A DNA stretch of 64,000 nucleotides from Candidatus Spongiisociaceae bacterium (lineage in GTDB: Bacteria > Actinomycetota > Acidimicrobiia > Spongiisociales > Spongiisociaceae), in the NCBI GenBank assembly GCA_965202665.1, contig OZ241841.1, positions 2,496,001-2,560,000 on the forward strand. The letters are read 5' to 3'. The translations under genes and the position numbers were made by a program. Shown piece after piece: positions 20,459 to 34,754 of the stretch (positions within the stretch are counted from its first letter, which is position 1; the number at the start of each line of letters is the position of its first letter). The notes beneath the pieces were generated by a model. The model searched no databases and had not been told where the DNA came from. It saw nothing but the letters and a program-made list of their open reading frames with translations.

Positions 20459-21313
20459 TCAGCGGGGGGAGCGCATCCTTTCCTGCAAGGTTTCGAAACG
20501 GAGTCCGGCCCGCAGGGCCTCCACCGCCAGCACCCGGGCCGGGTTGATGTTGCCCAGGTTGACATTGCCGCCGAACCGCTGGATGAAAGCCGCCTGCTGG
20601 TTTTTGAGCGGGGCTTCCCACACCAGCCGTCCCGCCGCCTCGCCGACCCCGTCGGCGATGGTTTCCACCGCTTTCTGATCGACCGCCCCGGCGTCGTTGA
20701 AAACCCCCACGCCGGTTCCCGACTCCCGCCCTTCCACCACCACCCAGCCCGCCCCCCATTGCATGTCCAACAGGGCCTGTTCGGCCATCTGCCGGGCGGT
20801 GAGCTGCGCCTGCGGGTCTTTCCTCCCCACTTCGCTGATCACCGCCAAGTCGCTCCCGAGGGCGGTTTCTATGGCCCGTCGCCGCCGATCGGGGGGGAGT
20901 GCGATGGTACCTTCGGAGATCTCCACCGCGCTGAACCCCAGCTGGGCGGCCCGGCGGAAAAACTCGGTTTCCCGCTCCCGCATCGCCGCCGCCTCGAACA
21001 GGGTCCCCCCCGGAAAGACCAGCCGCCCGTCCCCGCGCAACATCTCCAACTTTTCCCGCAACACCCCTTCCGGCGTGAGGGCGGACGTGCCGAAACCGAG
21101 CTTCCAATGGTCTATCCAGCGGCCCGCCACCGACAGCACGTCCCGCACCTCGCCCGGCCCCATGCCGCTGTCGATGACCATGGTCACCCCGGCGGCCCCG
21201 TTTCTTTCCAGCCGGGCGGCCATCGCCTCCGGGGGGATGACCAGCTCGCGCCAGGCGGGCCCGTCCGGGTCCTCCGGTTTTTCCGGGTTAGTTACTTCCG
21301 GGGGAGGGCTCAC
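20459..21313 (-). CDS. comA: Phosphosulfolactate synthase (CoM biosynthesis, ComA/XcbB)
   Basis: [54 protein letters not shown] 21313 overlaps upstream stop. Confidence 0.92.
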
Positions 21314-22884
21314 AGATCCTGCAGGTTTTTGGAACCGGCCCGCAACCGCGACAGCTGGATGAAATGGGTCGGGTTGAGAAACAGCTCGTCCATTTCCGCC
21401 AACTGGTCCACGGTCAGGCCCCGCCGGTAGAGCTGGAACAGGTACTGGAAGGCGTCTTTGCCGCCGTAGCCGACGTGGTGCGCCCCCACCACCCGCCGGC
21501 TGGCCGAGTCGATGATCAGTTTTTGGAAGCCGGACATGCGGGGCTTGGCGAAAGCGTAGAGCATGGTGCGGTCGGTGGCGGGCAGGGCCACCTCCCACCC
21601 GTCTTCGCTGTCGGGCGGCATTTTGATGATGGTCACGTCCCCGTAGACTTCCCGGGCCTGCTCTTCGCCCATTCCGAACCAGGACACCTCGTAGTGGGTG
21701 TGCAGGAAGTCGGGGAATTCGGTTACCACGTAGTGGACGTCCTCCCCCATGATGTGGCGGGAGGCGTACATCCCCGACTTGCGGGCTTTGAACATTTCCA
21801 TGGGGGCCCCGATCAGGTCGCCGATGGCGTACACGTTGGGCACCGAGGTTTGCAGTTGCGGGTTGACCATAACCGCCCCCTCCTCGTCCACTTTCACCCC
21901 CAGTTTTTCCACTGCCGCCTCCGAGTTGGGAATCTCCCCCAATCCGTGGAACACGAAGTCGGCGGCGATGCGACGGGGGCCGTCCGGGGTTTCCACGTTG
22001 ACGGCCCGCACCCGCCCGGCGTCGTCCCCTTCCAGGCTGGTGGCCAGCGACTCCTCCCAGATTTCCATGCCCTGCTCGCGCATCATCGTGATCGTGTAAT
22101 CGCGGGATTCCCCATCCGGCAGGTTTTTGAGAAGTTGTGAGCGCACCACCATAATCGTGCGCCGTCCGGTGGCTTGGAAGAAGCACCCGTATTCCACCGC
22201 CGTTTTGGAGCCGCCCAGCACCACCACCGTGTCCCCCGGTTCGTAGTCCAGGTCCTCCACCAGCGTTTCGTAGGTGTACACCCCGTGCAGGTCGGCGCCC
22301 GGGCATTCCAGCGGGCGGGAGCGGGCCCCCAAAGCCAGGATCAGGTTGTCGGCGGTGAAAGTGCGCCCCGCCACTTCCACGGTGCGGTCATCGATGATGG
22401 TTCCGGAGGCGTTCAACACGTATTCCAAGTCCAACTGTTCTTTGCTCTGGAAGTTCATAATGGCGTGGGGGGCGATGCGGCCCGCCCGGAACAAATCAAC
22501 GATTTCTTTTATGGAATTGGTTTTCCCGGCCAGGTCGGGGAACCAGAACCGCCCCCCGAAGGTGCGGGCCAGCATCAACTCGGCCGCCACTTCGCTGAAC
22601 AGGTGATGGGGGACGCAGGCGTTGTGCGGGCAGGAGCCGCCCAGGAACGGCCAGCGGTCGATGATCAACTGCCTGCCCCCCATGGCCCGCATGTAGGCGG
22701 AGCCGAACCGCCCGGCCGCTCCGCCCCCCAGGAAAATGGCGTCGTAGGGGCGGGGGTCCTGTTCGTCCACGTTGAACACCACCCGGCGGTCGGCGGGGTC
22801 TTCCAGCATGGAGTCGATCTCCGGCGCCCATTCGTTGATGGTCAGCGTTTGGTCGCGGATGTCCCAGTTGGCGACGGCGGTCAT
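21310..22884 (-). CDS. xecC: NADPH:2-ketopropyl-CoM oxidoreductase/carboxylase (2-KPCC)
   Basis: [31 protein letters not shown] redox disulfide, C-terminal [18 protein letters not shown]; closely matches recalled Xanthobacter XecC. Confidence 0.93.
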
Positions 22885-24998
22885 GCGCTCCTCCCCTCGG
22901 TCGGTTCGTTAGTTTCGTTCGGTTCCCCAACGGTTATTTTCCAGTCGACGGCTACCGCCCCGCGGCGGTTTACCATCACCGGGTTCAAATCTATTTCGAT
23001 TATATCCGGTCGGTCGGCGGCCAGGCGGCTGACGGCGGCCACCGCGGCCGCAAAACCGGCGGCGTCGGCGGGCGGCGCCCCCCGGTATCCGGCCAGCAAC
23101 CGGCGCCCGCGCAGTTTTTCGATCATGCCCATCGCTTCCGCTTCGCCGACCGGGGCCAGTGCGAAAACAACGTCTTCCCACAGTTCCAGGCGGGTTCCGC
23201 CGGTGGCGGCCATCACCACCGGTCCGAAGGAGGGGTCGCGCAACGCCCCGGCCGCCATTTCCACCCCGGACAGTTGCGGTTGGGCCAACGTTGCCCCGTA
23301 TTCCCCGGCCAGTTCCCGGAAGGCGGCCTCCGCTTCTTCCGGGCGGCGCAACCCGGTGCGCACCCCGCCCGTTTCCGTGCGGTGGGCGATTCCCGGGTCG
23401 GCGGTTTTCATGACCATCGGCTCCCCGGCCTCGGATATCTCGGAGTTTCCGGAGATTTCCGACAGGGCCCGCCGCGCCTCGGCGGCGGAGGTGCACAGGA
23501 AAACGGGGGCGGTGGCGACGCCGTATTCTTGCAACAGGTCAGTGGCGGGCAACGCGGGCAGGGGACCGGGCGGATAGGGGCGGGAAGCCGGGCGGGGCGG
23601 GGGAGGGGAGTAGGGGGGCGGGGGTTTCCGCAGGGCGTAGCGCACCGCGTGCCCCGCGGCCCGGGCGGTGCGTTCCGGCCATTCCAGGCAGGGGATTCCC
23701 GCCTCCTGCAACGGATCGGCCTGACTGCGTATCGCCCGGGGCCCCGCCCAGCAACCGTACACCGGGACGTTCACCCCCTCGTCCCGCAACCGTTGCGCGG
23801 CGGCCAGCACCGCCTGCAGTGTTTTCCGGTCGGCGGCGGCCCTTTCCAGCAGGATCGGGATCACTAAATCCACTTCCCCGGAGCGGGCCAGGGTTTCCAG
23901 CAACCAGGGGTACAGTTCGGCGAATCTGGGCCAGACGGGGGTCATATCCACCGGGTTGCCCGCGGCCGCGAACGGCGGAAGGCGGGAGGCGATGGTTTCC
24001 CGCAACGGCCGGGAAAGGGGCGGCGTTTCCACCCCGGCGGCGTGGAGCAGGTCCGTCAGCTCCACTCCCATCCCGCCGGAGTTGGTGATGACGGCCGCCC
24101 GGGCTCCCCCCGGCGGGGGTTGGGAGGAAAGGGCCTGGGCCGCGTCCAGCATTTCCAGACCGGAATGAACCGCCAAAGCCCCGGCCTGTTCCATCGCCGC
24201 TTGGTAAATCTTCTGATCGGCTGCCAGCGAACCGGTGTGGGAGCGGGCGGCCCGGGCCCCGTCCCGGGAAATCCCGGTTTTGAAGACGATTACCGGTTTG
24301 CCGGGGGAGGTTTTGCGTATAACCTCCGCCAGATCCCGTCCCTCCGGAATCGATTCCAGGATGAGGCAGATGACTTTGGTGTCCGGATCGGTCCGCAGAT
24401 ATTCCATCACTTCGTGGTCGGCGATGTCCGCTTTGTTGCCCGAGGAGAAGATTTTGCCGAACCGGATCCGGTCGTCCCGCGCCCGGGTGTGCAAGGCCAT
24501 CCCGTAGGCCCCGGTCTGGGTGACGAGGGCGATGTCCCCCGGCCGGGCGGCGGGGGCTTCCCGGTCCGGCGCGGTCAGGGAGGCGTTCAGTCCGCGGGCC
24601 GGGTTTAGCACGCCGAAGCAGTTGGGGCCCACCACCCGCACTTTCCCGGCCGCCCGAATCAGATCTTCCTGCAGGGCCGCCCCCTCCGGGCCGGTTTCGG
24701 CGAAGCCGCCCGCCAACACCGCCATCGCCCCCACCCCTTTGGCGGAAGCGGCGCGGGCCACATCCGGGACGGCCCGGGCGGGGACGGCCACCACCGCCAA
24801 ATCCACGTCCCCTTCTATTTCCTCCAGGCTGGCCGCGGCCGCAACCCCTCCCACCGCCTCGGCGGAGGGGGTGACCGGGATCACCTCCCCATCGAAGGAG
24901 GACAGGTTGCGCCACAGAAGGTTTCCCACTTTTCCCGGGTGCGGGGAGGCCCCCACCAGGGCCACCCGCCGCGGGTTGAACACGCAGTCCAGGCTCAC
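22881..24998 (-). CDS. Acyl-CoA synthetase (NDP-forming, acetate--CoA ligase family), fused alpha/beta
   Basis: [27 protein letters not shown] phospho-His, NPVD, EIDLNPV. Confidence 0.88.
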
Positions 24999-34563: not shown

Positions 34564-34565
34564 CC

Positions 34566-34754
34566 ATGCCGGTTTTGTTGCTGGAATGCCCGGACTGCGG
34601 CCATCGTTTCCGTTCGCTGGTGGCGCCGGGGGCGAAAACCCCGGAAGTGTGGGTGTGCTCCCAGTGCAAAAGCCGCCGCGCCGTCGCAGTGGAAGAAGTT
34701 TCCAACACCAACCACCCGTGGGCGGGGGAAGACATGACCCCCTGTTGCGGCTAA
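34566..34754 (+). CDS. Small zinc-ribbon (FmdB-like) protein
   Basis: CPDCGHRF...CSQC, C-terminal CCG; ATG 2 nt after xcbC-like stop. Confidence 0.7.
   Translation: MPVLLLECPDCGHRFRSLVAPGAKTPEVWVCSQCKSRRAVAVEEVSNTNHPWAGEDMTPCCG

Follow-up and report, generated by a model that had tools for sequence, protein, structure and literature searches.

A conserved chromosomal gene block for predicted coenzyme M synthesis and epoxide conversion in a Spongiisociaceae bacterium

Organization of the gene block

A total of fourteen genes predicted to encode the synthesis of coenzyme M (CoM) and a CoM-dependent epoxide pathway were found in the window, a stretch of 64,000 nucleotides from contig OZ241841.1 of a Candidatus Spongiisociaceae bacterium (GCA_965202665.1). 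Thirteen of the genes form two divergent runs, and all thirteen were found present and intact with open frames in the open reading frame and profile checks of the window, in line with an earlier note on this DNA that had described two divergent operons of these families. The unit reaches one gene further to the left, where an F420-dependent LLM-class oxidoreductase (19513-20433, +), scoring above the TIGR03564 cut-off and convergent with comA, forms the fourteenth member. Every gene of the block is single-copy in the host genome. The evidence given below refers to NCBIfam, TIGRFAM and Pfam cut-offs, best PDB matches, and identities to Xanthobacter autotrophicus Py2 (pXAUT01, CP000782.1), Nocardioides sp. 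JS614 (pNOCA01) and Mycolicibacterium chubuense NBB4 (pMYCCH.02).

The leftward run, on the minus strand, starts with a short-chain dehydrogenase/reductase (SDR) at 26722-27531 of the etn or S-hydroxypropyl-CoM dehydrogenase (S-HPCDH) type, with 62% identity to the etn SDR of JS614 and NBB4 and 52-54% to Py2 Xaut_4869/5050; its best PDB match is 4GH5, which we take to be the S-HPCDH of Py2. It is followed by two CoA-transferase subunits matching PF01144, namely an alpha subunit of the glutaconate CoA-transferase family (25795-26709; PDB 5MZW and 1POI; 63-65% to JS614/NBB4) and a beta subunit (24995-25798; 65-66% to the same strains), and by an ADP-forming acyl-CoA ligase of the etn-cluster type (22881-24998), 48% identical to the JS614 gene upstream of etnE. 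The run continues with 2-ketopropyl-CoM reductase/carboxylase (2-KPCC, XecC; 21310-22884), which matches PDB 1MO9 at E 2e-234 and is 66% identical to the Py2 enzyme. The last gene is comA/xcbB, phosphosulfolactate synthase (20459-21223), with 288.8 bits for TIGR03849 (cut-off 280), a match to PF02679 and 54% identity to Py2 XcbB. The start of comA is uncertain; the first in-frame ATG near the profile match was used, and the homology may extend to about 21295.

The rightward run lies on the plus strand beyond a 94-bp divergent gap, in which a sigma-70 scan returned no site. It opens with an R-hydroxypropyl-CoM dehydrogenase of the XecD type (27626-28351; best PDB match 2CFC, E 8e-61; 50% to Py2) and epoxyalkane:CoM transferase (EaCoMT, XecA/EtnE; 28598-29704), which is 77% identical to Py2 XecA and 48-52% to EtnE. 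Next come xcbA for the last CoM-synthesis step (29789-30721; NF052538, 358 bits, cut-off 150) and xcbD, 3-sulfopropionylcysteine synthase, containing GSITMP (30718-32070; NF052536, 669 bits, cut-off 600). They are followed by xcbE, a pyridoxal-phosphate enzyme (32067-33038; NF052537, 241 bits, cut-off 450; 52% to JS614, 44% to Py2), and xcbC, a phosphosulfolactate lyase of the ArgH-like family (33031-34563; NF052535, 390 bits, cut-off 575; 57% to JS614, 41% to Py2). The final gene encodes a 62-aa zinc-ribbon protein (34566-34754), 47% identical to the product of Py2 Xaut_4866, a gene located between xecA and xecC; the zinc-ribbon gene was found in most of the sampled EaCoMT loci and travels with EaCoMT. 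All five genes of the bacterial CoM pathway, xcbA-E, are clustered here, with XcbA, XcbB and XcbD passing their cut-offs. The FAS-II and dcw genes that the earlier note had placed in the flanks were verified as fabH, fabF and mraZ-ftsI-mraY-murB-ftsQ-ftsZ.

Enzyme identity and conserved residues

Catalytic residues were conserved in all copies checked, comprising 15 complete 2-KPCC, 17 XecD and 17 EaCoMT copies. In 2-KPCC, the equivalents of R56, R365, H137, M140 and M361, presumably the sulfonate- and substrate-binding residues, are retained in the host and in 14 complete relatives, and the redox cysteines C82/C87 correspond to C85/C90. The Phe-His dyad F501/H506, which replaces His-Glu and whose role in 2-KPCC is described in PMC8358701, is present as F502/H507. 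EaCoMT groups with Py2 XecA in a tree rooted on EtnE and containing no MetE row, and shares only about 30-33% identity with proteins labelled as methionine synthase (MetE-like). Its zinc ligands His-x-Cys ... Cys are kept, with H218, C220 and C341 corresponding to H218, C220 and C339; the same ligands also occur in MetE, so they are not diagnostic alone.

In XecD, the equivalents of S142, R152, Y155, K159, W195 and R196 are retained in the host, and these presumably include the SDR triad and the sulfonate pair R152/R196. At the positions of R211 and K214 of S-HPCDH (XecE), which we assume to be its sulfonate pair, the leftward SDR keeps the Lys and has Thr for the Arg, as in the etn SDRs of JS614 and NBB4, and it is classed as a predicted etn-type SDR. 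The predicted enzyme assignments are supported by identity to annotated references, active-site residues and the tree, and the families named in the earlier note (XecA/C/D/E, XcbA-E and etn types) were borne out.

We give almost no credence to the explanation that the block is a dead relic or consists of wrongly assigned paralogues of housekeeping genes (MetE, a generic disulfide reductase, PurB, ArgH), and this was refuted at the sequence level. Generic profiles do name the products methionine synthase, MerA/LpdA, purB and argH, and two genomes of genus g57 have deleted most of the block. However, EaCoMT and 2-KPCC are far closer to their Py2 counterparts than EaCoMT is to MetE-like proteins, the Phe-His dyad is present, the frames are open with dN/dS well below 1, and separate, distant purB-like, argH-like and disulfide-reductase paralogues exist elsewhere in the host genome.

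Host, distribution and descent

The host genome is a single 2.77-Mb contig, 94% complete, whose 16S is 98% identical to that of the Candidatus Spongiisociaceae genome carrying locus L003 and 88-89% identical to those of four other cluster-bearing genomes. NCBI taxonomy places the family Spongiisociaceae in Acidimicrobiia, Ca. Spongiisociales, an order that we take to be GTDB UBA5794. A RpoB tree (quick search, 41 rows) places genera g1, g2, g3 and g7 together (SH-aLRT 98), with the L004-L009 group apart in another family. Together, 16S, the RpoB tree and taxonomy uphold the earlier placement of the host in Acidimicrobiia and show it to lie outside the known alkene-oxidising genera. The host is likely to be sponge-dwelling, judging from the family name and from PMC12008989.

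Both EaCoMT and 2-KPCC were found in the same 21 of 29 genomes of the family, and XcbA in 23 of the 29. Of the 399 genomes of the order, 29 carry 2-KPCC, and these belong to 5 of the 106 genera; in the class sample an EaCoMT match was obtained in 7 of 401, one of those at only 44%. The gene order of the window was observed in most sampled loci of genera g1, g3 and g7 and in L003-L009, so that the same order holds for most sampled carriers of two families. Exceptions are insertions in several loci, four g3 loci without xcbC at its usual place and genome G027, where the block is split. A genome-wide pattern scan confirmed 235 EaCoMT relatives, of which the 80 kept span actinomycetes, alphaproteobacteria, methanotrophs and Chloroflexota; CoM clusters therefore extend more widely than the cultured examples.

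Two different deletion stumps were observed in genus g57 (L352:4746-8930 in G620 and L353:4751-7390 in G357), both of which retain the LLM gene, xcbC and the zinc ribbon, with EaCoMT and 2-KPCC gone from the locus. Three other genomes without EaCoMT and 2-KPCC (G013, G015 and G016) hold a comA-xcbA-xcbD-xcbE-xcbC operon (L148:4900-13700, L149:4800-16500 and L150) next to MSMEG_0568 radical SAM, MSMEG_0567-type acetyltransferase, FdrA, carbamate kinase and OsmC-like genes. These family members may use CoM, or a sulfonate related to it, in another pathway.

The composition of the block is host-like, with GC3 of 0.76-0.90 set against a genome median of 0.82 and a tetranucleotide distance ranking at the 77th percentile among windows of the genome. 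A tree of nine cluster proteins (26 rows, 3139 columns) agrees with RpoB for most pairs within g3 and g7, and dN/dS was found to be 0.03-0.36 (nine genes by eight pairs), excepting one pair with dS near 0; the block is under purifying selection in the sampled clusters. Composition, synteny, tree congruence and dN/dS argue for long residence, and the earlier description of the cluster as intact and GC-ameliorated stands. A recent island was considered and rejected on host-like composition, the lack of any tRNA within the 64-kb window, tree congruence and synteny. The cluster tree also unites the host genus with the L005-L009 group (support 100), and the approximately unbiased test rejected monophyly of the family (p 0.00056), where the group tested was the GTDB family and the first tree had been seen beforehand. 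The simplest reading is vertical descent with loss in g2 and one transfer from the stem of the host genus to the other family, the direction being given by parsimony only.

Comparison with known systems

The host block shares with Py2 all of the checked catalytic residues and the five xcb genes. It differs in being chromosomal and divergent, in the added CoA-transferase, acyl-CoA ligase and F420 LLM gene, and in lacking both an adjacent xamo operon and any match to the Py2 regulators. JS614 has the run of SDR, CoA-transferase alpha and beta and ligase in the same order (48-66%), XcbA/C/D/E are 52-59% identical to those of JS614 and NBB4, and NBB4 also has 2-KPCC-like (52%) and XecD-like (59%) genes. 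In contrast to these two strains, the host EaCoMT is of the XecA type, and etnABCD, MEDS/helix-turn-helix (HTH) regulators and PAPS reductase are absent. The block is a mosaic in which EaCoMT, 2-KPCC, ComA and the zinc ribbon are nearest to Py2, whereas the leftward SDR, CoA-transferase, ligase and XcbA/C/D/E are nearest to JS614 or NBB4. It departs from a canonical alkene-assimilation locus, as there is no monooxygenase operon linked to EaCoMT and there are no regulators.

A tblastn search of the host genome at E 1e-5 returned none of the MEDS/HTH and Py2-type regulators, nor was an acylating aldehyde dehydrogenase matched there, while the g233 cluster (L354) keeps MEDS, HTH, CoA-disulfide reductase and acylating aldehyde dehydrogenase genes. 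Unregulated expression of the block would be a guess.

Clusters in methanotrophs, as in Methylohalobius crimeensis (PMC11507031), resemble the host block in their XecA-type EaCoMT, SDR, glutaconate CoA-transferase, ligase and CoM genes, and in the absence of an alkene monooxygenase from the cluster. There, however, the particulate methane monooxygenase makes the epoxide, and the cluster is a sporadic island that has a MEDS regulator and is ethylene-induced (PMC11507031), whereas the block studied here is old and lineage-wide in an order where none of 29 carriers matched a copper-dependent membrane monooxygenase (CuMMO). In our survey, clusters of EaCoMT, 2-KPCC, CoA-transferase and xcb genes were also observed in many Methylococcaceae and Methylocystis genomes (L053-L082), as in PMC11507031.

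Proposed pathway and candidate source of epoxide

Genes, residues, synteny, selection and distribution were computed directly, and the activities, the substrate and the tie to a monooxygenase are predictions. We consider it fairly probable that the block is an intact, conserved 14-gene unit that would make CoM and convert small epoxides to acetoacetate-type acids and acyl-CoA, the epoxides likely arising from short alkenes through a group-1 monooxygenase encoded about 620 kb away. In this scheme the monooxygenase would epoxidize a short alkene, and XcbB, C, D, E and A would form CoM from phosphoenolpyruvate, sulfite and cysteine, a route that has been demonstrated for Py2 (PMC9457059). EaCoMT would open the epoxide with CoM to give a thioether, and the two SDRs would oxidize the R and S (or C2) hydroxyalkyl-CoM. 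The predicted role of 2-KPCC is an NADPH-driven cleavage of the thioether with addition of CO2 and release of CoM, yielding acetoacetate from C3 or malonate semialdehyde from C2 substrates, after which CoA-transferase and the ADP-forming ligase would activate the resulting acid for acyl-CoA metabolism. In PMC8727900 both the C2 route and these CoA steps are given as presumptive, and the latter are unproven even in the model strains. Epoxypropane is the favoured substrate on account of the XecA-type EaCoMT, the R-specific SDR and the Py2-like 2-KPCC; epoxyethane is possible, since in M. crimeensis ethylene elicits a response of the XecA-type enzyme. The pathway had been called complete, which holds for the epoxide-onward part only, because the cluster contains no monooxygenase.

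The sole di-iron monooxygenase of the host was found at G000:C1:1900184-1906963 (minus; equal to L084:5184-11963). Its operon has the order DJ-1 (DJ-1/HchA-like), two SnoaL-like genes, alpha, gamma, coupling protein, beta, ferredoxin and reductase, followed by a DUF59-like gene, a small ABM-like gene and a GntR gene, and all six components have open frames. The alpha subunit matches ToMO at E 1e-163 and falls in group 1, which is defined by a 35% cut-off (PMC11825192). The six components and identities above this cut-off are shared with the group 1 enzymes ToMO, T4MO, XamoA and IsoA (PMC11825192), whereas the upstream DJ-1 and SnoaL-like genes, the altered component order and the dioxygenase-type ferredoxin reductase set the host operon apart. 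Its alpha subunit, 46-47% identical to XamoA, forms a separate clade (100/100) with R. koreensis and metagenome-assembled sequences, apart from XamoA, ELW1 and the toluene/dioxane types, and the DJ-1 and SnoaL-like prefix is retained in nearly all long loci of this clade. A Val precedes the first iron-binding Glu, as in XamoA and the ELW1 enzyme, where the toluene/dioxane-type references have Ala, Gly or Pro.

In L334-L335 the clade is flanked by EaCoMT genes on both sides, and in L337/L040, L296 and L303 it is divergently oriented to EaCoMT. Since it adjoins EaCoMT in other bacteria, the monooxygenase is the likely epoxide source, and its link to epoxide supply in this genome appears moderately probable. 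All ten monooxygenase genomes of the family also have EaCoMT and 2-KPCC, although these are kin and not independent. Other routes to an epoxide were also looked for. CuMMO was rejected, with no match in the 29 carriers and a methanotroph positive control that did match. AlkB/desaturase was absent from the host and found in one of 29 family genomes, a cluster-negative one; no group-4 monooxygenase was present in the host, with etnABCD at 26-27% at best, and a halohydrin-dehalogenase motif (a weak test) was found in none of 1528 crudely called host genes.

Several observations weigh against the proposed pathway and its supply by the monooxygenase. With respect to CoM synthesis, XcbC and XcbE score under their NCBIfam cut-offs, though these are the best families for each, and of two possible sulfite sources PAPS (3'-phosphoadenosine 5'-phosphosulfate) reductase has no match in the host genome, and Xsc (taurine-derived sulfite) is above cut-off in four of four relatives but not in the host. 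With respect to the monooxygenase, the operon is unlinked to the block and alpha is only 46-51% identical to XamoA and toluene-type enzymes, without grouping with XamoA or the ELW1 enzyme; we know of no characterised reference in its clade. No CoM gene was found in the R. koreensis plasmid region bearing the clade, or in the fetched flanks of 28 of the 30 metagenome loci of at least 9 kb (80 of 202 such loci were kept, and 50 under 9 kb set aside). Of the 80 EaCoMT genomes, 50 were searched; an alpha match of any kind was obtained in 25 of these and a match of this clade in six. Further, a di-iron monooxygenase match is lacking in 11 of 21 family carriers, including the near-complete one- or two-contig G021, G026 and G027, and in the six genomes behind L004-L009; among the genomes tested, those behind L010 and L011, G610, G674 and G675, and the g57 and g233 genomes likewise gave no match. 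As the monooxygenase-free carriers keep the block under purifying selection, the cluster must be useful without the monooxygenase.

These gaps lend themselves to an alternative in which the block is a stand-alone sink for epoxides made by neighbours, for example through alkene co-oxidation by ammonia oxidisers sharing the host, or by P450s, while the monooxygenase serves another substrate. Most carriers lack a di-iron monooxygenase, CuMMO or, in the family, AlkB, with selection equally strong; P450s were found in five of five genomes tested, and the loss of MEDS/HTH regulators fits steady low-level exposure. A precedent is M. crimeensis, which induces such a cluster and removes co-oxidised epoxyethane (PMC11507031). 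The present genome, however, has an intact candidate monooxygenase whose clade is tied to EaCoMT in four other loci, and we regard the sink as an unlikely, though substantial, competitor. Supply by the monooxygenase and use as a sink can both hold, in different genera.

Two irregularities were observed in the monooxygenase loci of relatives. In G004, of the same genus as the host, the beta subunit lies in two frames (L139, about 5000-5900), reflecting a frameshift or an assembly error. G024 (L145) is the only g7 genome with the monooxygenase, and its alpha groups with g3 sequences, which indicates transfer or a binning error.

The F420-dependent LLM gene

Orthologues of the LLM gene with at least 63% identity were found in 31 of 399 genomes of the order, corresponding to all 29 carriers of 2-KPCC and the two deletion stumps. 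One further match in the order was at 43%, and a search of four family genomes without the cluster was negative at E 1e-40. In 11 of the other loci, EaCoMT has a homologue of 50-59% identity to the LLM protein within 10 kb. The linked copies (46 rows, partly redundant) have invariant His40, Arg43, Arg102, Arg245 and Arg249, and His40 with the four extra arginines would suit a sulfonate site. The host cofD profile match is just at the cut-off. The enzyme probably performs a further redox step on a CoM conjugate, a guess from co-occurrence, and nothing on this gene was found in a literature search.

The LLM gene follows the cluster (29 of 29) far better than the monooxygenase does, and this favours an alternative in which the natural input is not an alkene epoxide and is instead another small electrophile, such as a haloalcohol, or in which the LLM enzyme provides a separate entry into hydroxy- or keto-alkyl-CoM. 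Activity of EaCoMT on haloalcohols is presumed in this alternative, and the invariant LLM residues and the cofD match would agree with it. On the other hand, the LLM gene is intact in the two stumps that lost EaCoMT and 2-KPCC from the locus, and no LLM match was present in the fetched Py2, JS614 and NBB4 regions, so the core pathway works without it. We find this alternative decidedly improbable, and an input of alkene-derived epoxide is preferred.

Relation to published work

Bacterial CoM chemistry has been described for a few alkene degraders, where it is mostly plasmid-borne, and for sporadic methanotroph islands. It had been called unexpected in the host group, which stands insofar as the literature found does not discuss it, but enrichment of xecC and comA is already present in the supplement of PMC12008989. 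Supplementary file 10 (among 12 of 15 files covered) compares 14 UBA5794 genomes from sponges with 84 free-living ones; xecC (K22364) is listed for 11 of the former and none of the latter, and comA for 10 and 3, respectively. The main text contains none of the terms 'coenzyme M', 'alkene', 'epoxide' and 'monooxygenase'. Alkene-monooxygenase-free CoM clusters are reported for methanotrophs (PMC11507031) and a marine propene user with Py2-like genes in PMC6440738; the available parts of PMC8941161 and PMC11525543 contain nothing on a sponge CoM epoxide system. No paper joining sponges with epoxyalkane, 2-oxopropyl-CoM or alkene monooxygenase was found in a search that excluded subscription papers.

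The core enzymes and chemistry are already known, and the gene set is not unique, since NBB4 has the same families on one plasmid. The variant features are the added F420 enzyme, the lost regulators and the unlinked or missing monooxygenase. What emerges is an old chromosomal trait that is present in five of the 106 genera of a single Acidimicrobiia order and occurs mainly in a family whose name refers to sponge symbionts. This suggests that small epoxides or alkenes are steadily available in the habitat, and also a small CO2-fixing route, which we did not find discussed in the literature. The group-1 monooxygenase clade, with its candidate alkene substrate, and the F420 enzyme tied to CoM clusters are targets for bench work. 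A wider scenario, which we offer as speculation and hold to be doubtful, is that sponge-type Acidimicrobiia act as an epoxide sink for their community by means of a regulator-free CoM carbon-capture pathway. The new DJ-1/SnoaL-type monooxygenase clade would epoxidize alkenes in some genera and most genera would use the epoxides of co-residents, the block would have moved between symbiont families inside hosts, and the F420 enzyme would carry out a novel CoM step; if true, two 'methanogen' cofactors, F420 and CoM, would be joined in one bacterial pathway.

Neighbouring genes

Mobile-looking genes nearby (IS110, HNH/DUF222 and a low-GC methylase-helicase block) fall outside the conserved unit. 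An IS110 transposase, apparently short at its C-terminus, lies to one side of the cluster (16355-17251, -) and a DUF222/HNH gene to the other (35568-36881, -), while an AlkZ-like glycosylase (17792-18982) and an AHSA1 gene (18986-19399) adjoin the LLM gene. The low-GC block (38531-46615; 43-55%) is a probable defence island. It contains an Eco57I-type adenine methylase (40068-43313), a SNF2-like helicase (43310-46615) and three small genes that are excisionase-like or related. Finally, a protein of 482 aa without an NCBIfam match is encoded at 37065-38513 (-); it has S-layer-like repeats, two domains that are repeated and, in all likelihood, a signal peptide.

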